Shown: positions 19,701-62,542 of the stretch, piece by piece
How the letters are laid out: every line of letters starts with the position of its first letter
Numbering within the stretch: the stretch's first letter is position 1
Source: Patescibacteria group bacterium
GTDB lineage: Bacteria; Patescibacteriota; Minisyncoccia; 2-02-FULL-40-12; IGHO2-01-FULL-4-A
Direction: 5' to 3'
Length of the DNA stretch: 64,000 bases
NCBI GenBank assembly: GCA_038064915.1
Contig: JBBTSB010000010.1
Span: forward strand, 19,809 to 83,808
Position numbers and translations under genes: made by a program
The notes under the pieces: model-generated
What the model was told of the DNA's origin: nothing
What the model saw: the letters and a program-made list of their open reading frames with translations, nothing else
Databases searched by the model: none

Positions 19701-20234
19701 ATGTCAAAAATCGGCAAAAAACCCATTGCGATTCCCACTGGCGTTGATATAAAAATCGACGGCAATTCGCTTGTTGTCAAAGGCCCTAAGGGGGAGTTAA
19801 AAAAACTTTTTCCTGCAGGAGTTTCGTTTGTTAAAGAAGAAAGTAATTTGAAAGTTGCTGCGGAAAATAGCGCTATCTGGGGTTTGAGCCGAGCGCTTGC
19901 GGCAAACATGGTCACTGGTGTTGCCCAAGGATTTCAAAAAATACTTGAATTTACCGGCGTGGGATACAAAGCACAGGTGAAAGGTGATATGTTAGAACTC
20001 AACCTCGGATTTACTCATCCTATTTCCGTAAAAGCTCCCCCGGCGGTTACTTTTAAGGTAGAAAAGAATGTTATCACCATTGAAGGGCCCGACAAGGAAT
20101 CGGTAGGACATGTTGCCGCAGAGATTCGTTCTCATCGTCCCCCGGAGCCCTACAAGGGAAGTGGTATTAAATATCGAGATGAGGTAATTCGGCGCAAGGC
20201 TGGCAAAAAAGCTGGCGCTACGGCTACAGCATGA
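19701..20234 (+). CDS. rplF: 50S ribosomal protein L6
   Basis: Start MSKIGKKPIAIP at ATG 19701, in frame with ORF 19650..20234. Confidence 0.92.
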   Translation: MSKIGKKPIAIPTGVDIKIDGNSLVVKGPKGELKKLFPAGVSFVKEESNLKVAAENSAIWGLSRALAANMVTGVAQGFQKILEFTGVGYKAQVKGDMLELNLGFTHPISVKAPPAVTFKVEKNVITIEGPDKESVGHVAAEIRSHRPPEPYKGSGIKYRDEVIRRKAGKKAGATATA

Positions 20235-24414: not shown

Positions 24415-25236
24415 ATGAGCCGGCTCACCGAGGGCATTGATGGCCGCATGATTGAGGCAGCCAAAACGCTTTCCGCACAGGGCGGAACCCTGGAAGACCT
24501 CGAGGTGCTCAAGAACCCCGAGGCCAATCCCCGTGCTGTCACTGTGGCACGGGCCGTCTTGCGTGAGCTCCGTGGAGAGGTGCTCGCGCCCATTCCGCTC
24601 TCGCCGCCGCAGATCGTCCCGGGCGCCAAGAACTTCATAAACTTCGACCTCTCGGCTTTCATGGTGAGCTGGACGAAGTTCTACGGGCGGATTTTCCAGA
24701 TCACGCTCGATCCGGCTTCCGTGCTGTTGCCGCCCCTTGAGCTCGCGCTCGGGAGCGGCCTCATCCGTCATCCCGACGTCACTATCGAGAAGGTGCTCTC
24801 GGCGTGGAAGAAGAACACGCCCAAGGAGCTCCTCTACCGCTACACGGAGAGCGATCTGGACGCTGCGATTCAAAAGGAGAAGGAGTCGTGGCGCCCGAGC
24901 GGTACCTACGTCGCCTGGGCGTATCCGGCGATCGAGGCTACGGACCAGGCGCCCGAGCTCGCCGAGAAGTCCTACGAGGACATCCAGGCAATGCCCGGGG
25001 TCTGGGTCATGAACTATCCCGAGCTGCCGCTCTACGCGCTCTGGCACTACGTGGAGACCGGAGTGCCGCTAGATCAGAAGACCGTCTCGCTCTCGGACTC
25101 ACTCGATGCGGCTGGCCGCGCGCTCGGCGGCAGCTGGCACGGCGACGGGTTCTGCGTCCACTGGTGCCACCGGCGCGGCTCGCACCCGAGCATCCGCGCT
25201 CGCAGGATCGTTCTCCCGCAGCCGAAGGCTGCGTAA
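24415..25236 (+). CDS. DGR target protein (273 aa), GC-rich, with the variable region in its C-terminal ~35 residues (…GGSWHGDGFCVHWCHRRGSHPSIRARR…), C-type-lectin/FGE-like VR-fold expected
   Basis: AAGGAG SD 7 nt upstream of ATG 24415. The 3' 106 nt equal the TR except at TR-adenine positions. Confidence 0.75.
   Translation: MSRLTEGIDGRMIEAAKTLSAQGGTLEDLEVLKNPEANPRAVTVARAVLRELRGEVLAPIPLSPPQIVPGAKNFINFDLSAFMVSWTKFYGRIFQITLDPASVLLPPLELALGSGLIRHPDVTIEKVLSAWKKNTPKELLYRYTESDLDAAIQKEKESWRPSGTYVAWAYPAIEATDQAPELAEKSYEDIQAMPGVWVMNYPELPLYALWHYVETGVPLDQKTVSLSDSLDAAGRALGGSWHGDGFCVHWCHRRGSHPSIRARRIVLPQPKAA
25111..25216 (+). repeat. DGR variable region (VR)
   Basis: 106-nt alignment to 25495..25600 with 22 mismatches, every one at a template adenine; the identical 3' block CATCCGCGCTCGCAGG is IMH-like. 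Confidence 0.8.
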
Positions 25237-25241
25237 CGCTT
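25225..25241 (+). other. hairpin CGCAGCC-GAA-GGCTGCG immediately 3' of the VR (DGR target-recognition stem-loop analog)
   Basis: perfect 7-bp stem with 3-nt loop, 9 nt after the VR end. Confidence 0.5.
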
Positions 25242-25265
25242 CTCGCTCTTCTCTCGTTCACTCGG

Positions 25266-25310
25266 ACTCCGGCAGCTTGCTGCTGGAGTCCGATTTCTTT
25301 TTTGGTATAC
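25266..25310 (+). terminator. Rho-independent terminator of target gene (CGGACTCC…GGAGTCCG + TTTCTTTTTT)
   Basis: 8-bp stem plus T-run. Confidence 0.6.
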
Positions 25311-25494
25311 TTACCCCGGGCTCATACAATCGGTCTTGTTCGCCGTTTGGCGAGACGGATAGCGATTTGCCCTATCAAAGGAGAACTACGTGCCCTTTTT
25401 TGGAGAAGAAGAGCTTCCTAAAAAATCTACTGCAATGGCAGCATACTCATAATTCTTTTTGAATGATGAGCGGCAAGGATGAGATGGGGCACTT

Positions 25495-25600
25495 ACTCGA
25501 TGCGGATGGCAACGCGCTCAACAGCAACTGGAACGACGACAAGTTCTACGTCAACTGGTACAACCAGCGCAACTCGAACCCGAACATCCGCGCTCGCAGG
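25495..25600 (+). repeat. DGR template region (TR), Asn-codon (AAC) rich
   Basis: See VR. It is followed at 25606..25645 by the hairpin CAACAGGCTCCT-TCAT-AGGAGTCTGTTG plus T7. Confidence 0.8.
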
Positions 25601-25620
25601 TAGACTCCCAACAGGCTCCT

Positions 25621-25962
25621 TCATAGGAGTCTGTTGTTTTTTTGGAATGATCCGATCCAGCCATTTGTTTCTTTTGAGATTTCTTGAAGTTCTTCTTCAA
25701 ATGCTTGATATAGACTTAGTCCGATAATATCCAGTTCTTGCATGAGCCGTACCATGCGTTTTAGTATTTCTATATTGGTGCGTAGGTCTTTCAGTGTAGG
25801 GACCTTTTCAATACCAGTTTGAAATCGTGCCTTGATCGCAAGTGCAATTGCATCCAATATAAGCGCATCAAGTTTTGAATAAATTCCGTGCCGATCCTGC
25901 TTTGATATTTTCGTGCGGAGGCGATAAAATTTCTTGTAAAACTCAAACAAATGATAAATCAA
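25621..25962 (-). CDS. avd: accessory variability determinant (Avd)-like four-helix-bundle protein, opposite strand to TR/RT
   Basis: 113 aa, basic. The C-terminal …LQEISKETNGWIGSF and central …RHGIYSKLDALILDAIA… segments resemble the Avd / 23S-IVS four-helix-bundle family. TTG start. Confidence 0.55.
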   Translation of the reverse strand: MIYHLFEFYKKFYRLRTKISKQDRHGIYSKLDALILDAIALAIKARFQTGIEKVPTLKDLRTNIEILKRMVRLMQELDIIGLSLYQAFEEELQEISKETNGWIGSFQKNNRLL

Positions 25963-25963
25963 G

Positions 25964-26914
25964 GTGACAGGTCGTTGGGGGGGGGGTCGCTATAGGAGTA
26001 TTCATGATTTGGCAAATTTATTTCTCGCCTGGCGGGAATTCCGGCGCGGCAAGCGACAGAAACCGGATGTTCAAGCATTTGAGTTTGATCTGGAGGATAA
26101 CCTATTTGAGCTTCACGAGCAACTCGTATCAAAAACATATTCGCACCAGCCGTACGAATCATTTTTTGTAACAGATCCAAAGCTTCGACATATCCATAAG
26201 GCCACCGTGCGAGATCGCGTCTTGCACCAGGCGGTGTTCCATGTGCTCTATCCGATCTTTGATCATACATTTATCTACGACTCCTATTCCTGTCGCATTG
26301 GCAAAGGGACTCACATTGCCGTTAATCGTCTCAAAGAATTTTGCCGCAAAGCTAGTTGCAACAATTCACGAAACATCTTCGCTCTCAAATGCGATATCCG
26401 CAAGTTCTTCGATTCGGTAGATCATGAAATTTTGATTGATTTGATAAAGCAGAGCGTTGTTGATCCCGATGTGCTTTGGCTCATAAAATTGATTCTCGAT
26501 AGTTTTCCCAAGGGCCTACCTTTGGGCAACGTCACGAGTCAATTATTTGCAAATATCTATTTGAATGAGCTTGATCAGTTTGCTAAGCATACGCTCAAGG
26601 CAAAGTATTACCTGCGCTACTGCGATGATTTTGTGTTACTCAACCCAGATCAGTCGACCCTTCTAGTAATTCGCAATTTTTTAGAGAATAACCTCAAACT
26701 GCAGCTTCATCCCAACAAAATCATCCTTCGTACCTACCGCCAGGGGATTGATTTTCTCGGCTACGTCGTGCGGCCGTACTGTCGAACCTTGCGGACGAAG
26801 ACAAAGAAGCGAATTTTTAAGAATATTTCAGAGAAAAATCTCGCATCGTACCTTGGTGTTCTCGATCATTGCGACGGATATGCCATTCGCCAAAAGCTCT
26901 TTGATTTGGTATGA
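25964..26914 (+). CDS. DGR reverse transcriptase
   Basis: RT motifs including LPLGNVTSQLFANIYL (DGR-type IGxxxSQ) and YCDDFVLL (YxDD). N-terminus alignable to Bordetella Brt. GTG start; G10 tract at 25977-25986. Confidence 0.85.
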   Translation: MTGRWGGGRYRSIHDLANLFLAWREFRRGKRQKPDVQAFEFDLEDNLFELHEQLVSKTYSHQPYESFFVTDPKLRHIHKATVRDRVLHQAVFHVLYPIFDHTFIYDSYSCRIGKGTHIAVNRLKEFCRKASCNNSRNIFALKCDIRKFFDSVDHEILIDLIKQSVVDPDVLWLIKLILDSFPKGLPLGNVTSQLFANIYLNELDQFAKHTLKAKYYLRYCDDFVLLNPDQSTLLVIRNFLENNLKLQLHPNKIILRTYRQGIDFLGYVVRPYCRTLRTKTKKRIFKNISEKNLASYLGVLDHCDGYAIRQKLFDLV

Positions 26915-26921
26915 TTTTTCC

Positions 26922-27629
26922 ATGTATCTTTCTGTCATTATTCCCGCTTACAACGAAGAAAAACGCATCGGCAAGACGCTCGAAGCAATTCGAGAATATT
27001 TGAGCGAGCAAAGTTATGAGTGGGAAGTCATTGTAGTAAATAATAATTCAAATGATGCTACAAGCGAAATTGCAGAAAAATATCAGGTTCACGTCATTGA
27101 CGAAAAGCGACCAGGAAAAGGATATGCAGTCACGACCGGAATGCTTGAGGCAAAGGGTGATCTCCGACTTTTCACTGATGCTGATAATTCAACGAGCATT
27201 GATCATCTTGACCTCATGATTCCGTATATGCAAAATTACGATGTGGCGATTGGCTCTCTTGCAGTACCTGGAGCGAAGGTTGTGCAGGGAGGCGAAGAGC
27301 CATGGTATCGTGTTATCATGGGTAAGCTGGGCAATAAATGGATTCAGCTATTCGCGGTATGGGGGATCCATGACACGCAACGTGGATTCAAGTTATTTAA
27401 GGCGCAAGCCGTAGAAAAGATCTTTCCCAAGCTCACAATCTTTGGCTGGGGATTTGATGTAGAAGTTTTGGCTTTAGCACGCAAGTTTGGTTTTACCATA
27501 AAAGAAATACCTGTCACGTGGGACAACGATCCCAATTCCAAAGTAACCGTTTGGGCATATCCGCAAGTACTTTTGCAAACACTTAACGTGAGATGGAACC
27601 TGTTAACGAATAAATATGGATCCCGTTAG
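26922..27629 (+). CDS. GT2 family glycosyltransferase (DPM1/polyprenyl-phosphate sugar synthase-like)
   Basis: MYLSVIIPAYNEEKRIG… DxD context; start at ATG 26922, 8 nt after the RT stop. Confidence 0.8.
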   Translation: MYLSVIIPAYNEEKRIGKTLEAIREYLSEQSYEWEVIVVNNNSNDATSEIAEKYQVHVIDEKRPGKGYAVTTGMLEAKGDLRLFTDADNSTSIDHLDLMIPYMQNYDVAIGSLAVPGAKVVQGGEEPWYRVIMGKLGNKWIQLFAVWGIHDTQRGFKLFKAQAVEKIFPKLTIFGWGFDVEVLALARKFGFTIKEIPVTWDNDPNSKVTVWAYPQVLLQTLNVRWNLLTNKYGSR

Positions 27630-27697
27630 AAGCAGCCCTAACGGGTTATAATCTACGCTAAACTATTACTATGACTTATACTGCTTCTAACGGGATG
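27619..27697 (+). promoter_or_regulatory. conserved cis element copy A: hairpin CCCGTTAGAAG…CTAACGGG plus distal CTTCTAACGGG abutting the galT ATG
   Basis: A near-identical arrangement is found at 61382..61462. Confidence 0.5.
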
Positions 27698-28687
27698 GAA
27701 AGTGAATTTAGAAGAGAAATCGTTTCCGGAGATTGGGTATTGATCGCGGCGGGACGAGGAATGCGTCCGCACGCGGTAAAGCCGCGCGAGAGCAATTATC
27801 AAAGTCCCGCTGACTGTCCCTTTGAAGACCCTCAAAAATCAGGCAACAGTGAAGCAGTCATGGTTGTTCCCGAGGGGTCAAACGAGTGGCGCATCCAGGT
27901 CGTCAAAAACAAATATCCTGCCGTTGTGCCGGGAGCGTGCGGGCCGATTATGGAGCGAGAAGGATTTGAAGTTACCGCAGGAGTGGGATTCCATGAAATT
28001 ATCGTCATGCGCGACCACGACAAATTTTTTCCTTCGTTTTCACCGGAGGAGACAGCTCAAGTTCTGCAAGTGTATCGCGATCGCTACCGCCAGATTGCTC
28101 TCGAGCCTTGCGGTCAGTACATTATGATTTTTCACAACTATGGTCATCGCGGCGGAGCCAGTGTGTACCACCCACATTCACAAATCATTTCCGTGCCGAT
28201 CATTCCTCCTGATGTCATGCGAAGCGTCAAGGGATCTTATGATTACTTTAAAAAAAACGGACGTGAAGCACATGCCGTTATGGTGGAGTATGAACTTGCG
28301 AACAAAAAACGGATTCTCTTTGAAAATGAGCAGTTTGTAGCCTTTTGTCCCTTCGTTTCCAAACAGCCCTACGAAATGCGCATCTATCCAAAATTTTCCA
28401 GTGCACATTTTGATCACATAGAAGATCAGAGCCTTGTGCCGCTAGGCGAGGCTCTGAACACGGTACTCAAAAAAATGCGTGACGCTCTTGATGATCCGGC
28501 ATATAACTTTTTCATCCATACGGCGCCGCTTCACTTTGAACACTCAGATCTTTCCTTTGACCAGTACTATCGATGGCACATAGAAGTCATTCCACGTGTG
28601 AGCTTTGATGCCGGGTTTGAGGCAGGGACGGGAATTAAAATAAATATTATAGATCCGGATGTTGCCGCGCAAACGCTCAATGGGTAA
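27695..28687 (+). CDS. galT: galactose-1-phosphate uridylyltransferase (HIT family)
   Basis: HPHSQI HxHxQ motif and Zn-binding Cys/His N-terminus. ORF track start is 27671; ATG 27695 is preferred by analogy with element copy B. Confidence 0.8.
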   Translation: MESEFRREIVSGDWVLIAAGRGMRPHAVKPRESNYQSPADCPFEDPQKSGNSEAVMVVPEGSNEWRIQVVKNKYPAVVPGACGPIMEREGFEVTAGVGFHEIIVMRDHDKFFPSFSPEETAQVLQVYRDRYRQIALEPCGQYIMIFHNYGHRGGASVYHPHSQIISVPIIPPDVMRSVKGSYDYFKKNGREAHAVMVEYELANKKRILFENEQFVAFCPFVSKQPYEMRIYPKFSSAHFDHIEDQSLVPLGEALNTVLKKMRDALDDPAYNFFIHTAPLHFEHSDLSFDQYYRWHIEVIPRVSFDAGFEAGTGIKINIIDPDVAAQTLNG

Positions 28688-34314: not shown

Positions 34315-34319
34315 TGAAG

Positions 34320-34727
34320 CTTGGTATATCTGTAAGCCGAATTCTGTATTTGTGTGATCATTCATCTTGCCCGGCTGTTGCCAGACGGATCCTTGCGGCA
34401 CCCCCGCACAAATGCGTTAGCTTTTGGCGGGTACGGCCTTGCACCAGGCAGGGTTTAGCGCACTCCCATGTCGCCATGGGGTGATTCCGTTCGGAACCTT
34501 TTCACCCGCGGTCAGCCGTCTGGCTGACTCGGAATGGTCTCTGTGCCACTCACCGCTACGCGCTCGCGCTCTAGCGGGACCCCGCAGTTATGCGGTGGTT
34601 TCCCTAAGTTTTCACTCGGTGGTCGTTAGCCACTGCCTATACCAAGGTTTAACCTTGGTAGTGTTCGGACTTTCCTCGCTCCCCCGACAGAATCGTCGGG
34701 GCCCGCGCGATCACCCGATATACCAAG
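34320..34727 (-). ncRNA. rnpB: RNase P RNA, bacterial type A
   Basis: Read on the minus strand. P1 GGTATATC…GATATACC; P3 CCCCGAC-GATTCT-GTCGGGG; CR-I GAGCGAGGAAAGTCCGAAC; CR-V ACAGAATTCGGCTTACA. GC-rich with no credible ORF. Confidence 0.8.
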
Positions 34728-42799: not shown

Positions 42800-42871
42800 G
42801 CGGGTGTGGTTCAATGGTAGAACACGACCTTCCCAAGGTTGAGACGTGGGTCCGATTCCCATCACCCGCTC
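42800..42871 (+). tRNA. tRNA-Gly (anticodon CCC)
   Basis: Cloverleaf GCGGGTG acceptor / CACCCGC; D-arm GTTC..GAAC; anticodon stem CGACC/GGTTG with loop TTCCCAA; T-arm GTGGG-TCCGATT-CCCAT; no encoded CCA. Confidence 0.8.
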
Positions 42872-53692: not shown

Positions 53693-55455
53693 CGCTCTCT
53701 GCAAGCCTCATACTATCATTTGCGCTGTTTGGCAACGGCATAAAAGGAGATTATGTTTTTGACGACAAAATAGTCATTCTGGGCAATCCGCATTTGGAAG
53801 AGCGTCCGCCGAGTCTTATAGACATCTTTAGCGATTCCTACCATGCATACCAGCCGACGACCGGTTTGTATCGGCCGCTGACGATCGCAAGCTTTGCACT
53901 GAACACGTATATGTTCGGAACGTCGCCGGTGAGTTTTCATGTGTTCAATATCATCCTCCACGCTCTTGTGGGGTTCATGATCTATGTAATCGTCGGAAGT
54001 CTTGCCGATATGCGCACGGCCGTGGTAAGCGCGCTCCTGTTTCTGTTCCTTCCCATCCATGTCGAAGATGTTACGTCCTTGGTGGGTCGCGCGGAGCTTT
54101 TGGCGCTTTTGTTTTCGCTTGTAGCGCTGTATGCGGTCATGCGCGGAAAGTATCATTGGGGGGCGCTGGCGTTTCTTTTGGGGCTTTTCAGCAAGGAATC
54201 CGCGATCGCATTCATTCCGATTTGGCTTTCCTGGGAATATTTTTTCAACAAACAAACGATTCGCACAATCCTCAAGCGATTTTTGATTATGCTTCCTGCA
54301 ATCAGTATATATGCGGTGCTCCGTTATCTAGCTTTGGGGAAATATGTTCTTGCCAACGATGCCACGGCCGTCTACAATCCGCTCAAATTTGCTCCTTTTT
54401 TTGATACACTGTGGACCAGCGGCAAAATCGCTTTTCTCTATATTCAAAAAATGTTGGTGCCCACGGTTTTTTCTTCGGATTATTCGTTCAACCAGATTCC
54501 CGTCGTCCACAATCCCTTTAGCTCCTGGCAGGCCCTGCTCGGATTGACGATACTCGCGGGACTTGTGTGGATTGCCGTAAAAAAGCGGCGTTCGCTTGTT
54601 GGATGGTCTGCCGTAGTGTTTCTTGCTTTTTATTTCATCATATCAAATCTTATTTTCAAAACCGGTACCATCATGGCGGAGCGTTTGGTATATGCCGCAT
54701 CGCTTGGTCTGGTGATGTTATTGGCGCTGTGTATAGAGCATCTCCGAAAAAAAATCGGTCATGAAAAGGTCATCTATGGCGCTTTGACAATTATGTTGAT
54801 TTTCTATGGATACAAAACTATCAATCGCAATTCTGTTTGGATCAGCGAGGAACGGCTTTTTGCGTCTGCCGTTGTCGTGGCTCCGGAGAGTGTTGTGAAC
54901 CGCACCAACCTTGCCTATCTTCGCTATGTCCAAAAAGATCTTGAGGGCGCAAAGACGGAAAGCGAAGGAGTGTTGGCTATCGCTCCCGACCATGTGCCCG
55001 CTCTCAACCTGGCCGCGCAATCAAACAAAAAGCTTGGCAACCCCAAGGTTGCAGAAGATTACTGGAAGCGTGCCATTGAGCTCCGTCCAGATTATGTCCG
55101 CGGATATTTGGGATTGGGTGTGTTATACTACGAAAATGGTCACTTTCCGGACGCAGAGCTCATTCTTACCAAGGCGGTAAATATTTTCCCGCGCTGGAGT
55201 GAGGTGCTGTTTCTCTCGCTGACCAAAACGGCGCTAAAGAAATACGATGAGGCGATTGCGATTGTTATTCAGCACTTCGGAGAAGATCCGGAGCGACCGG
55301 ACCTCATCTTTGCTCTCGGCGTAGCCTACTACAAAAAAGGCGACCGCGAGCATGCCATGAAGTACCTGCGCAAGGTCCAAAATCCCAACCTTACCCAAGA
55401 GCAATTTTTACAAACCATTGAAAAAAACACTATTTTTCTCATTACTGATCTGTAG
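53656..55455 (+). CDS. TMTC/PMT_2-like GT-C glycosyltransferase with TPR (paralog 3)
   Basis: VFDDKIV, GLYRPL, TPR tail; very similar to paralog 5. Confidence 0.75.
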   Translation: MLRFNPRISSLLALSASLILSFALFGNGIKGDYVFDDKIVILGNPHLEERPPSLIDIFSDSYHAYQPTTGLYRPLTIASFALNTYMFGTSPVSFHVFNIILHALVGFMIYVIVGSLADMRTAVVSALLFLFLPIHVEDVTSLVGRAELLALLFSLVALYAVMRGKYHWGALAFLLGLFSKESAIAFIPIWLSWEYFFNKQTIRTILKRFLIMLPAISIYAVLRYLALGKYVLANDATAVYNPLKFAPFFDTLWTSGKIAFLYIQKMLVPTVFSSDYSFNQIPVVHNPFSSWQALLGLTILAGLVWIAVKKRRSLVGWSAVVFLAFYFIISNLIFKTGTIMAERLVYAASLGLVMLLALCIEHLRKKIGHEKVIYGALTIMLIFYGYKTINRNSVWISEERLFASAVVVAPESVVNRTNLAYLRYVQKDLEGAKTESEGVLAIAPDHVPALNLAAQSNKKLGNPKVAEDYWKRAIELRPDYVRGYLGLGVLYYENGHFPDAELILTKAVNIFPRWSEVLFLSLTKTALKKYDEAIAIVIQHFGEDPERPDLIFALGVAYYKKGDREHAMKYLRKVQNPNLTQEQFLQTIEKNTIFLITDL

Positions 55456-57064: not shown

Positions 57065-58805
57065 CAAGTATCTCTTGGTGGGTTTGGCTGTTTCGTTTGC
57101 GCTTTTCAGCAACGGAATACGGGGAGACTTTGTTTTTGATGACGCGATCGTCATTGTTGGCAATCCCATTATTGAGCGGGGGATTTCCGGGGTGGTTGAG
57201 GCCTTCCGGTCACCCTACCACGCTTACCAACCCAAGACAGGCCTTTATCGTCCGCTTACGATTTTTTCTTATTCGCTGAATTACGCTATATTCGGCACTT
57301 CACCGGTGAGCTTTCATGTGGTTAACATTGTTCTGCATGGGCTCGTTGGGTTTTTTATTTTCTTGGTCCTTCAACAGATTGGTGGCAAGCGCGCGGCTAT
57401 TCTTGGCATGTTGCTGTTCCTCGCGTTTCCCATTCATGTCGAGGACGTGACGTCTATCGTAGGCCGTGCTGAACTCCTCGCCCTGCTGTTTGTTCTTGCG
57501 GCTTTGTATAGTGCCATGCGACATCGGTACATCCTTGCATCCTGTATGTTTTTGCTCGGCATCTTGAGTAAAGAATCCGCGATCGTATTTTTGCCAATGT
57601 GGCTTGCGTGGGAATACTTCTTTAACAAACAAACGATTCGCACCATCCTCAAGCGATTTTTGATTATGATTCTTGCAATAAGTATGTATGCGGTGCTCCG
57701 CTATCTGGCACTGGGGGAATATTTTCTCGCCAACGATGCCACTCCCACGTACAACGCTCTCAAATTCGCTACCATTCCCCAAACCCTATGGACATCAGGG
57801 AAGATTTTTTTTCTGTATCTGCAAAAAACGTTGTTCCCGACGGTTTTTTCGCCCGACTATTCGCTTTTCCAGATACCGTTGCTCAACAGTCCTCTGGCGT
57901 CATGGGAGTCGATCGTGGGAATAGTGCTACTTGTCGGCTGTATCGTGATTGCATGGCGAAATCGGCGTTCTCCCTTGGGGTGGTTTGTTCTATTCTTTTT
58001 GAGTTCCTACTTTATTATTTCCAATCTTGTTTTCAAAACCGGCACAATCATGGCCGAGCGCATTCTGTATCCAGCCACCTTTGGCCTTGCGGCGATGACT
58101 GCGTATGGCATCGAGTGGTTGAGACAGAAATGGGGGCATGAGAAGGTGATCTATGCGAGTGTAACTCTTCTACTCCTTTTCTATGGCTTCAAAACAATCC
58201 AGCACAACCGTGACTGGATCAGCGAAACTAATCTTTTTCAACGAGCCTATGCTTCCGCGCCGTTGAGTATTCCCAATAGGGTAAACCATGCATATTTGGC
58301 GTATCGAGATAACAACTATGCGCGTGCTGTTGATGAACTGGAAGCGACGTTGACCGTTGTGCCCGATCATGTCCCCGCCTTGCATCTTGCGGGGCAAGCA
58401 TATAAAAAAATGGGCAACGTGGGTAAGGCAGAGGAGTATTGGAAAAAAGCAGTTGCATTGCAACCCGACTATCTTGCCGCTTACCTTGGTCTGGGAATGC
58501 TGTATTATGAGCAGGGGCATTTTGCGTCCGCGGAGGCGGCGCTTGATGACGCGGTGGCCGTCTTTCCTCGTTCTAGCGAAGTCGCCTATCTTTCATTGGC
58601 AAAGACCGGTCTCAAAAAATATGACGAAGCGATTTCGATTGTGGAGAACTATTTTGGAAAAAATCCCGGCCAGGTTGAATTGCGTCTTGCTCTTGGCATC
58701 GCCTGGTACAAAAAGGGCGACAAGGAGCGGGCATCGGAATACATCAGCGCTGATTATTTTCCCACGATTGAGAAAAATTCGATCTTTCGAATCATTGACC
58801 TATAG
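57048..58805 (+). CDS. TMTC/PMT_2-like GT-C glycosyltransferase with TPR (paralog 5)
   Basis: ATG 57048 within ORF 57012..58805; VFDDAIV, GLYRPL; long identical stretches with paralog 3 (for example KQTIRTILKRFLIM). Confidence 0.75.
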   Translation: MKVTGSKYLLVGLAVSFALFSNGIRGDFVFDDAIVIVGNPIIERGISGVVEAFRSPYHAYQPKTGLYRPLTIFSYSLNYAIFGTSPVSFHVVNIVLHGLVGFFIFLVLQQIGGKRAAILGMLLFLAFPIHVEDVTSIVGRAELLALLFVLAALYSAMRHRYILASCMFLLGILSKESAIVFLPMWLAWEYFFNKQTIRTILKRFLIMILAISMYAVLRYLALGEYFLANDATPTYNALKFATIPQTLWTSGKIFFLYLQKTLFPTVFSPDYSLFQIPLLNSPLASWESIVGIVLLVGCIVIAWRNRRSPLGWFVLFFLSSYFIISNLVFKTGTIMAERILYPATFGLAAMTAYGIEWLRQKWGHEKVIYASVTLLLLFYGFKTIQHNRDWISETNLFQRAYASAPLSIPNRVNHAYLAYRDNNYARAVDELEATLTVVPDHVPALHLAGQAYKKMGNVGKAEEYWKKAVALQPDYLAAYLGLGMLYYEQGHFASAEAALDDAVAVFPRSSEVAYLSLAKTGLKKYDEAISIVENYFGKNPGQVELRLALGIAWYKKGDKERASEYISADYFPTIEKNSIFRIIDL

Positions 58806-60738: not shown

Positions 60739-61381
60739 CGAGCGCAAAACGCTTGGCCATGTTATCAGCGCCGTCAAATCGGTTCTCTTGGATGTGGAAA
60801 AAGAAATCATCATCGTCAATGACGGATCCACTGACGGTCCTGTACCGGAAGCGACCATTACATTTGAACAGAATCGGGGCAAGGGAGCAGCTCTGCGTGC
60901 AGGATTTGCAAAAGCGACCGGTGACATCATCCTCATTCAAGATGGTGATTTGGAATATGATCCGCGTGAATACCAGTCGTTGATCCAACCCATTCTGGAT
61001 GGCAAGGCCGATGTTGTCTATGGATCAAGACTTGTTACACATCACCCGCATCGTGTACTTTACAATCACCACTATCTGGCGAACAAATTTCTAACCTCGT
61101 TTTCTAATCTTTTTTCCAACCTCAATCTTTCCGATATGGAGACATGCTACAAAGTTTTTTCCAGATCAGCTTTGGATGATATCAAGCCGTGTTTAACGGC
61201 GAATCGCTTTGGAATAGAGATAGAACTGACGGCGCAGATCTCCAAGCACCATCTGCGCGTATATGAAGTCGGTATTTCCTATAGCGGGCGTACGTATGAA
61301 GAAGGAAAAAAAATAGGATGGAAGGATGGTGTGGCAGCGCTCTGGCACATCATTCGATATAACGTATTCCGCCGTTCATGA
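60707..61381 (+). CDS. GT2 family glycosyltransferase (polyprenyl-phosphate glycosyltransferase-like)
   Basis: [12 protein letters not shown]…DGDLEYDP. Confidence 0.8.
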
Positions 61382-61462
61382 ATCCCGTTAGAAGTTGCCC
61401 TAACGGGTTACAAACCACACAATGTCGAATATCAACATTACCATACAACTTCTAACGGGATG
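61382..61462 (+). promoter_or_regulatory. conserved cis element copy B (CCCGTTAGAAG…CTAACGGG … CTTCTAACGGG-ATG)
   Basis: See copy A at 27619..27697. Confidence 0.5.
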
Positions 61463-62542
61463 AAAAAAATCCTCATTGCAACCGGCATCTTTCCTCCGGA
61501 TATTGGCGGGCCTGCGACGTATGCAAAACTCCTGGCGGATCATTTTGGCGATGACGTTCATGTCATGACATACACGGCTGGTTTGCGAAAAATTCCCTGG
61601 CCGTTGCGGCAAGTGATATTTTTTTTCCGCCTTTGGCGAGCAAGTCGGGACGTCGACGTAATATACTCGTTGAGTCCTCTGGGCACGGGTATTGCGGCAG
61701 CTTTACTAGGTAAGCCATTTGTAGTTCGTGTTGCGGGGGATCGTGCCTGGGAGGATGCGGTGAACAGAGGAAAAACTCAATTGTTGTTGGATGATTTTCA
61801 GAATCTCAAAAAACGTGGCCGTAAGCATCGTCTGCAAGTTTGGGTGTGCCTCAAAGCCAAGAGGGTCGTCGTTCCGTCATCCTATCTTGCTGGCATAGTG
61901 GTTGGTTGGGGGATACCCAGAGAAAAAATCACTATCGTCGCCAACTCCGCCGACTTAGTGGTTCAACCACTAAGTAAAGAAGAAGCCCGGAAAGAACTTG
62001 GGCTTCAGGGCAACGTGATTATCTCGGTCGGGCGCCTTGTTCCCTGGAAGGGGTTTCGCATGCTCATCAAGATTGTGCCGCAATTTTTGGAAATCAATCC
62101 CTTTTTTCGGTTGGTGATTGTCGGCGACGGCCCGGATCGGACATTACTGGAGACGATGATACACAATTTGAACCTTCAGAAAAAAGTTCACCTCGTGGGG
62201 AAAAAATCGCATGAAGAACTCATTCGCTACCTGCAAGCATCAGAAATCATGATTCTCAACAGCGGCTATGAAGGATTTTCGCATCAACTTCTCGAGGCAA
62301 TGATGATCGGAGTTCCTGTCATTGCCTCGAACATGGGTGGAAACCGTGAACTCGTTCGGCAGGGCGAAAATGGTTTTATGGTAAAGTACAATGACGAGTT
62401 CAACTTGGTCGAGGCAGTAAAAACCTTGTGGGCCAGTCCTGAGCTTCGCACAAAATTTACTGTCGAAGGCAAAAAAACCGCCGCACAGTACACTCCGGAG
62501 CGCACTGTGCGTGAGACGAAAGCCGTACTTGATACGATATGA
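61460..62542 (+). CDS. GT4 family glycosyltransferase
   Basis: GYEGFSHQLLEAMMIGVPVIASNMGG motif. Confidence 0.85.
   Translation: MKKILIATGIFPPDIGGPATYAKLLADHFGDDVHVMTYTAGLRKIPWPLRQVIFFFRLWRASRDVDVIYSLSPLGTGIAAALLGKPFVVRVAGDRAWEDAVNRGKTQLLLDDFQNLKKRGRKHRLQVWVCLKAKRVVVPSSYLAGIVVGWGIPREKITIVANSADLVVQPLSKEEARKELGLQGNVIISVGRLVPWKGFRMLIKIVPQFLEINPFFRLVIVGDGPDRTLLETMIHNLNLQKKVHLVGKKSHEELIRYLQASEIMILNSGYEGFSHQLLEAMMIGVPVIASNMGGNRELVRQGENGFMVKYNDEFNLVEAVKTLWASPELRTKFTVEGKKTAAQYTPERTVRETKAVLDTI

Follow-up and report, generated by a model that had tools for sequence, protein, structure and literature searches.

A probable new family of miniature inverted-repeat transposable elements at the start codons of two sugar-metabolism genes in a Patescibacteria genome

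The window analysed here, a stretch of 64,000 nt from a Patescibacteria group bacterium (assembly GCA_038064915.1, contig JBBTSB010000010.1, forward-strand positions 19,809 to 83,808), carries two copies of a short hairpin-forming element, to which we refer as copy A and copy B. Each copy follows a GT2 glycosyltransferase gene and sits directly at the start of the next gene, which is a galT-like HIT-family gene at copy A and a GT4 glycosyltransferase gene at copy B. The GT2 reading frame ends within the 5′ arm of copy A (TAG, 27627-27629) and directly before copy B (TGA, 61379-61381). This shared arrangement upstream of galT and the GT4 gene, with a GT2 gene preceding both copies and a GT2 stop codon inside copy A, had been noticed in an earlier sequence-only reading and was borne out when we read and aligned the two loci. 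That reading favoured an RNA switch or thermometer controlling translation initiation, and named as its alternative a miniature element bounded by terminal inverted repeats (TIRs) and carrying an internal partial copy of the repeat; it was the alternative that the target-site duplications (TSDs) and empty sites described below showed to be correct. We conclude that copies A and B are very probably members of a new family of transposable elements of the miniature inverted-repeat kind (MITEs), inserted at the start codons of two sugar-metabolism genes, since they combine inverted repeats, TSDs, empty orthologous sites, small size and dispersed copies in unrelated contexts, the features by which bacterial MITEs are defined (summarised in PMC3184786).

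Alignment and an inverted-repeat check showed that each copy has a perfect 16-bp terminal inverted repeat and, in addition, a third, internal half-site. The complementarity of the 5′ and 3′ arms had been described as 11 bp long in the sequence-only reading; it is indeed exact and lies against the start codon, but it extends over 16 perfect base pairs. The local 8-bp hairpin proposed between the 5′ arm and the internal half-site was likewise recovered. The features of both copies are listed here together with their state in relatives, for which we used contigs of three galT homologues (L062, L063 and L064, with protein identities of 85%, 74% and 67%) and the contig of a GT4 orthologue (L186, 71% identical).

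27617-27620, plus strand: 5′ TSD copy TGGA of copy A, preceded by the A of the original galT start; a single TGGA is present in L062, L063 and L064
27620-27635, plus strand: 5′ arm of the 16-bp inverted repeat of copy A, ATCCCGTTAGAAGCAG
27621-27695, plus strand: copy A of the probable MITE, 75 nt, running from T-CCCGTTAG to CTAACGGG-A; absent from L062, L063 and L064
27636-27645, plus strand: internal third half-site of copy A, CCCTAACGGG, able to form the 8-bp local hairpin with the 5′ arm at -11.5 kcal/mol
27681-27696, plus strand: 3′ arm of copy A, CTGCTTCTAACGGGAT, the exact reverse complement of the 5′ arm, spanning A and T, the first two letters of the galT ATG
27696-27699, plus strand: 3′ TSD copy TGGA of copy A, whose TG forms the working galT ATG (27695-27697) with the element-terminal A27695
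61379-61382, plus strand: 5′ TSD copy TGAA of copy B, which includes the GT2 stop TGA (61379-61381) and together with A61378 is what is left of the original ATGA stop/start overlap
61382-61397, plus strand: 5′ arm of copy B, ATCCCGTTAGAAGTTG
61383-61460, plus strand: copy B of the probable MITE, 78 nt, with the ends of copy A and a core of another subfamily; absent from the L186 junction
61398-61407, plus strand: internal third half-site of copy B, CCCTAACGGG
61446-61461, plus strand: 3′ arm of copy B, CAACTTCTAACGGGAT
61461-61464, plus strand: 3′ TSD copy TGAA of copy B, which with the element-terminal A61460 forms the GT4 start ATG (61460-61462)

The arms of the two copies differ at two positions, and the differences are compensatory (CAG/CTG in copy A, TTG/CAA in copy B). 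The core of approximately 40 nt, which in copy A measures 35 nt from the internal half-site to the 3′ arm, differs between the two copies and is not conserved between subfamilies. The window contains six instances of the 8-mer CCCGTTAG, a number reached in none of 100 shuffles and to be compared with an expectation of 1.05, and all six fall inside copies A and B. The ends of the element can be written as TIRs of about 15 bp, (T/C)CCCGTTAGAAG...CTTCTAACGGG(A/G), and outside the terminal T...A pair both copies are flanked by 4-nt direct repeats, TGGA for copy A and TGAA for copy B. Simple scans of the two copies revealed no open reading frame (ORF) and no promoter-like or terminator-like signal; where an intrinsic terminator would have a T-run after a GC-rich stem, the stem here is followed by ATGG or ATGA. 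Segmental duplication of a GT2 gene with its leader is excluded as the source of the shared element: the two GT2 proteins are only 30% identical, so that the element does not belong to a duplicated block, and no alignment is obtained between the flanking DNA of the two copies.

Comparison with relatives showed both insertion sites in their empty state. The GT2-galT-TIM synteny is retained in all three galT comparison loci, and PGK is retained as well in L063 and L064 (the L062 contig ends too early to reveal it), yet the element is present in none of them. The junction in L062, AATAAATATGGAAAGTGAATTT, corresponds to the window sequence minus exactly 79 nt, that is, the 75-nt element and one TGGA. 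Removal of the element and one repeat from the window predicts an ancestral GT2/galT junction, AATAAATATGGAAAGTGA, in which the two genes overlap by 11 nt, and an 11-nt overlap is found in L062 and L064 where the window has the element and the second TGGA. The same removal at copy B predicts TTCATGAAAAAA, with the common ATGA overlap between GT2 and GT4, and at the empty site in L186 the GT2 gene (142-807) and the GT4 gene (804-1913) overlap by 4 nt, TTGA. Because the orthologous GT2-galT and GT2-GT4 junctions of relatives lack it, the element is an insertion at stop/start overlaps, accompanied by a TSD, and not a conserved leader. The GT2/GT4 junction of one relative (L184, 2111-2479; L185, 2096-2464) holds instead a 122-aa gene of the 23S_rRNA_IVP type, a four-helix-bundle family, and small insertions seem to have entered this junction repeatedly.

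The insertion has corrupted the annotation on both sides of copy A. The deposited galT model of 338 aa (P0001), for which the annotation reads DUF4921 family protein, takes ATG 27671 within the element as its first codon and carries eight spurious N-terminal residues, MTYTASNG (27671-27694). All galT homologues have the N-terminus MESEFR or MDSEFR, so the galT start is ATG 27695, as the sequence-only reading had argued in preference to 27671. The upstream GT2 gene now takes its stop codon from the element, and comparison with the L062 empty site implies that its C-terminus changed from ...NKYGK to ...NKYGSR. In metagenome-assembled genomes (MAGs) of Patescibacteria and Saccharibacteria, gene callers would make errors of this kind at about 1-3% of genes.

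The family extends well beyond the window. We queried species-representative genomes with the three half-sites and metagenomes with the exact 5′ module; the genome scan returned 61 loci, against fewer than one expected by chance according to our own calculation, and the metagenome scan at least 119, many of them from groundwater samples. The related stretches found in public scans number more than 180 and come mostly from Patescibacteria and Saccharibacteria, with about 10 copies in one Saccharibacteria MAG alone; several Parcubacteria-type lineages are further hosts in the genome scan, and a more divergent architecture occurs in Omnitrophota, Deltaproteobacteria, Planctomycetota and one Prevotellaceae MAG. 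Phage carriage was sought in two scans of viral collections, which yielded one distant relative and nothing else. The copy A core subtype recurs in a different gene context (L001), and the copy B core subtype is found at many sites in one MAG. The sequence-only reading had looked to further copies as a check on its switch; many were found, but they behave as a transposon with TSDs. Judged by their N-termini, the downstream genes look, among others, like those for TyrRS, PilC, GDP-mannose dehydratase, PurC, ribosomal protein L10, KdsA, an ABC permease and a sigma factor, and a sugar-gene regulon is ruled out because relatives of the element precede such functionally unrelated genes.

For a quantitative description we pooled the elements with an exact 5′ module from both scans (among the matches listed) with those of the window, giving 101 unique elements. 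They fall into two size classes of 73-76 nt and 100-117 nt, within an overall length range of 62-117 nt. Identical 4-nt flanks border 80 of the 101, where chance would produce them at a rate of 1/256 per element; the duplicated sequence is TGAA in 46 cases, TGGA in 18, TGAG in 5 and TGCG in 3, with others making up the remainder. Among the candidate elements of the genome scan, 37 of 67 have identical 4-nt flanks. The terminal pair is T..A in 95 of the 101 elements, C..G in 6 and mismatched in none, and elements without an exact 3′ arm turned out to be normal copies that have acquired point mutations.

The reconstructed target is A-T-G-R-A, the start codon and two further bases, with no other conserved position. 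The 3′ junction forms ATG or GTG in 93 of the 101 elements, and an ORF of at least 80 aa starts exactly at the junction codon in 78 of 98. With TG as the first two bases of the duplication and A or G as the last base of the element, the downstream gene keeps an ATG or receives a GTG; in C..G-ended copies the ATG stands in the upstream repeat copy and the GTG at the gene. The upstream gene, in turn, keeps its TGA through the other copy of the duplication or gains a TAG inside GTTAG: its stop is the TGA of a duplicated TGAA in 10 elements, the TAG of GTTAG in the 5′ arm in 16 (copy A included), and lies up to 10 nt upstream of the duplication in 13, the three placements together accounting for 39 of 86. 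In 93 elements, against 1 with the reverse arrangement, the internal half-site marks the end that points away from the gene, and relatives with a slightly decayed internal half-site have the same orientation. We also considered whether the short ORF that begins at the duplicated ATG encodes a translated leader peptide with defined coupling, and ruled this out, since in 67 of 78 cases the ORF stops prematurely within the element, and the lengths of the elements are spread over all three frames.

The reconstructed starts of the invaded genes (5′ flanks, L001-L182 and the window) have a Shine-Dalgarno (SD)-like 4-mer at positions -3 to -16 in only 6 of 77 cases, together with a weak enrichment of G 2-4 nt before the ATG, a pattern that hints at SD-poor initiation in the host lineages.

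The long stem formed by the two arms is the minimum-free-energy fold of the elements on either strand, with z-scores of -3.8 to -5.6. Its predicted energies in the two copies are -30.1 and -30.2 kcal/mol, compared with -13.7 and -14.5 kcal/mol for the alternative fold with the local hairpin, and even with the local hairpin in place, about 16 kcal/mol are needed to free the 3′ arm. Since the two folds differ by this much, the system is not a balanced switch. The long stem nevertheless pairs the A and U of the AUG, and from the modelled folds an effect of the hairpin on translation is plausible. RNAalifold recovered essentially the terminal stem alone, with compensatory changes at three positions, so that the covariation analysis suggested in the sequence-only reading does find a conserved long-range stem. 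The inverted-repeat positions proper and the flanking T..A are paired in 99-101 of the 101 elements.

These observations can be combined into a model for how the element arrives and is tolerated. We infer that a DDE-type transposase making 4-bp staggered cuts mobilises the element in trans. Transposition duplicates 4 bp at a start codon and preserves both flanking reading frames, and the terminal A or G of the element rebuilds the start codon with the duplicated TG, as is seen in the junctions themselves. In the mRNA the arms would then pair into a stem of approximately -30 kcal/mol that masks the start codon. Translation of the upstream gene, whose stop lies in or beside the 5′ arm in both window copies, or of the ORF that begins at the duplicated ATG, could melt the 5′ arm and transiently free the start, after which the freed arm might be captured by the internal half-site. 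In the reversed orientation, whether or not ribosomes are active upstream, the internal copy would instead pair with the start-proximal arm and the gene would be silenced, and the orientation bias could therefore have arisen by selection. Seen in this way, the element is not a sensor but an insertion that is tolerated and possibly preserves coupling.

Several observations weigh against the element being an ordinary MITE. By a crude count, the window has 14 genes starting with RTGRA and 144 intergenic TGRA sites, so that motif preference and tolerance together would be expected to leave only about 9-18% of surviving insertions on starts, whereas the observed share is about 80-90%. A start-codon and orientation bias this far above the expectation for a passive transposon hints at something beyond a plain MITE. 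At one arm position that is free in sequence, all four Watson-Crick pair types occur and 96 of 101 elements are paired, against 51 in shuffles; from these sequences the complementarity of the arms itself appears to be maintained, and transposase binding alone does not obviously demand complementarity at sequence-free arm positions. Finally, the 1.12 Mb of fetched loci yielded neither an autonomous element nor a transposase with matching ends; searches there for long-range inverted-repeat pairs with matching duplications, for lone half-sites and for elements without a 3′ arm, as well as all-against-all ORF clustering, returned only MITEs, MITE pairs and decayed ends.

It is conceivable, though we think it doubtful, that the MITE has been exapted, with its hairpin recruited as a portable translational-coupling or attenuation module and the start position selected as useful and not merely tolerated. 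Such recruitment would explain the excess on start codons, the fixed orientation and the retention of arm complementarity where the sequence is free, and would also give meaning to the upstream stops that lie in the duplication, in the 5′ arm or within 10 nt upstream in 39 of 86 elements, as a ribosome terminating there would melt the stem. The early stops and the spread of lengths over three frames, however, show no sign of a selected coupling geometry, 23 of the 101 elements have no ATG or GTG where the duplicated 5′ start is expected, and the same pattern could result if the transposase preferred its targets asymmetrically. A bolder and more tentative proposal, which we consider unlikely, is that of a start-codon-seeking mobile element, whose integration is actively directed to the start of ORFs at A-TGRA, between the A and the TGRA, in one orientation, and whose hairpin and decoy constitute a portable module that maintains or sets the translational coupling of the invaded gene; such a transposon would have co-evolved with the highly compact, overlap-rich operons of Patescibacteria, and translation could in that case be rewired gene by gene. 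If either the start and orientation specificity is built into integration or the hairpin modulates coupling, the element would represent a natural portable handle on translation initiation, and one acting in organisms whose starts appear largely SD-poor.

A dedicated cis-regulatory RNA, be it a riboswitch, a thermometer or a protein-operated switch, in which the 5′ arm would pair with either the internal half-site (ON) or the start-proximal arm (OFF), is improbable. The two mutually exclusive pairings, the inclusion of the A and U of the AUG in the long stem, the compensatory changes in that stem and the nearly invariant placement and orientation relative to the downstream gene (93 to 1) would all suit such a device, as would the GGAGG in the distal arm of two Omnitrophota relatives. 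The element is nonetheless missing at the orthologous junctions of close relatives, the genes downstream are functionally unrelated, and the core between the arms varies among subfamilies with no conserved sensor; searches of Rfam with the window and 14 loci, at gathering and at permissive thresholds, gave nothing relevant above noise. In stability the ON state falls short of the OFF state by about 16 kcal/mol, an SD-like 4-mer is found in the last 16 nt of the element before the start codon in 0 of 77 cases, and the TSDs show arrival by transposition. The likeness to RNA thermometers and to the expression platforms of translational riboswitches thus goes as far as a stem into which part of the start codon is drawn and an alternative pairing that would release it; unlike them, the present element has no conserved sensor domain, no orthologous conservation and no SD sequence in the stem, its states lie some 16 kcal/mol apart, and its copies arise by transposition. 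The switch or thermometer of the sequence-only reading accordingly did not hold up, lacking orthologous conservation, functional coherence, a sensor domain and energetic balance.

It is very improbable that the element is of the repetitive extragenic palindromic (REP/REPIN) type, or derived from IS200/IS605, and moved by a single-strand HUH (Y1) transposase. Palindromic conserved ends around a variable spacer, a hairpin-forming doublet, the seeming selection on complementarity itself and the half-site clusters of alternating orientation in other phyla are all reminiscent of such elements. REPINs and IS200/IS605 elements insert without duplication, however, and the present family has clean 4-nt TSDs in 80 of 101 copies, with a single 4-mer at the empty site; moreover, no recurrent protein was found near the elements in the 61 clustered genome loci, in which RAYT/TnpA was not searched for specifically. 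A repeated protein-binding site that is not mobile, such as an operator or a DNA-uptake sequence (DUS), can be set aside almost entirely: a short conserved core (CCCGTTAGAA / TTCTAACGGG) does recur in several phyla and in both orientations, in a form that resembles the neisserial DUS, but the six half-sites in 64 kb all lie within the two elements, no regulon is apparent, and TSDs and empty sites would be left unexplained.

With the element regarded as a probable MITE, its relation to described systems can be considered. Among bacterial elements of this kind, Correia, ERIC and RUP duplicate TA, and mycobacterial interspersed repetitive units (MIRUs) occur as tandem arrays (variable-number tandem repeats, VNTRs). 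The present family, by contrast, has a 4-bp duplication that prefers TGRA; its ends and core are unrelated in sequence to those of known bacterial MITEs, more than 90% of its copies sit exactly on a start codon in one orientation with the last base of the element completing the codon, and its hosts belong to the Patescibacteria, or candidate phyla radiation (CPR). In other respects it resembles bacterial MITEs such as Correia/NEMIS of Neisseria, RUP, ERIC and Nezha, which are likewise shorter than 200 bp, have TIRs and TSDs but no transposase gene, occur as many dispersed copies with empty and filled sites between relatives, and form a long stem-loop as RNA (PMC3184786). Among the systems covered there, mycobacterial MIRUs and neisserial REP2 are the closest in behaviour. 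MIRUs are units of 40-100 bp within polycistronic operons, with tetranucleotide direct repeats at filled sites, absence from the homologous loci of a relative, and ends that overlap the stop and start of the neighbouring genes (PMC3184786), whereas their own inverted repeats are imperfect, their sequence is unrelated, their hosts are Actinobacteria, and neither a 16-bp perfect stem nor a decoy half-site has been described for them. REP2 similarly lies directly upstream of many genes with its end fused to the translational start (PMC3184786), but it brings its own promoter, ribosome-binding site and ATG, lacks inverted terminal repeats and serves a co-regulated gene set; the present element, which differs from REP2 in sequence and host range as well, contributes to the start codon no more than its first base, contains neither promoter nor SD sequence, and precedes unrelated genes. 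The ends also resemble those of piggyBac/IS1380-type transposons, with a 4-bp T..A-type duplication, CCC ends and an asymmetric subterminal repeat, although in the present element an extra base (T or C) stands between the duplication and the CCC; a relationship is speculation on our part.

The literature that we searched contains no description of MITEs in CPR or Saccharibacteria, and a literal search for the sequence returned primers and unrelated matches only. The host genomes have nearly no intergenic space, and an element that enters a stop/start overlap, duplicates it and thereby keeps both reading frames whole illustrates how mobile DNA can persist there.

Individual copies and more distant relatives depart from the common arrangement in various ways. 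On the minus strand of L143 (approximately 2506-2749), two nearly identical 113-nt elements stand in tandem with a common TGAA between them, apparently the result of a second insertion into the duplicated target of the first. A Saccharibacteria copy (L016, 4777-4852) lies 7 nt past the ATG of an epimerase-like gene (MSTILVTGG), with the TSD TCCA, and interrupts its frame; an in-frame TTG within the 3′ arm could act as a replacement start. The Prevotellaceae MAG Iy174_bin82 (L002, L006, L008, L023, L033, L037, L047, L049, L050 and L056) contains a high-copy element, often at contig ends, that consists of a 34-nt perfect palindrome, GCATCCCGTTAGGGATGCATCCCTAACGGGATGC, and a third arm; it has the CCCGTTAG core in common with the family but a different architecture, and no clear 4-nt duplication was seen under the parsing used for the family. 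A further group, from Doudna-, Moran- and Kerfeldbacteria, an unclassified Patescibacteria MAG and Deltaproteobacteria (L007, L011, L025, L032, L035, L039, L052 and L059), has ends of the type C..G or T..A, duplicates TAAA or TTGA, and is located off start codons. These relatives vary from bare 41-nt hairpins (L039) to forms with four half-sites, which suggests a wider superfamily with a T-N-N-A target.

Elsewhere in the window, a diversity-generating retroelement (DGR; 25097-26914) lies just upstream of copy A, with a candidate variable repeat at 25097-25206, a template repeat at 25491-25600 and an ORF for an RVT_1 reverse transcriptase at 25964-26914. All of the approximately 20 mismatches between the repeats have A in the template repeat, and the candidate target ORFs gave no Pfam match. 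We found no evidence linking the MITE to the adjacent reverse transcriptase: many loci that carry the family show no sign of a DGR in the examined flanks, and the family has the hallmarks of a DNA transposon. The window also encodes a bacterial class A RNase P RNA (34317-34726, minus strand, 143.9 bits) and a tRNA-Gly(CCC) (42800-42871, plus strand). A 300-nt direct repeat with 77% identity (54171-54470 and 57548-57847, at a spacing of 3.4 kb) is accompanied by a further pair at 54148 and 57066, and these repeats at 54-57 kb are probably paralogous genes.

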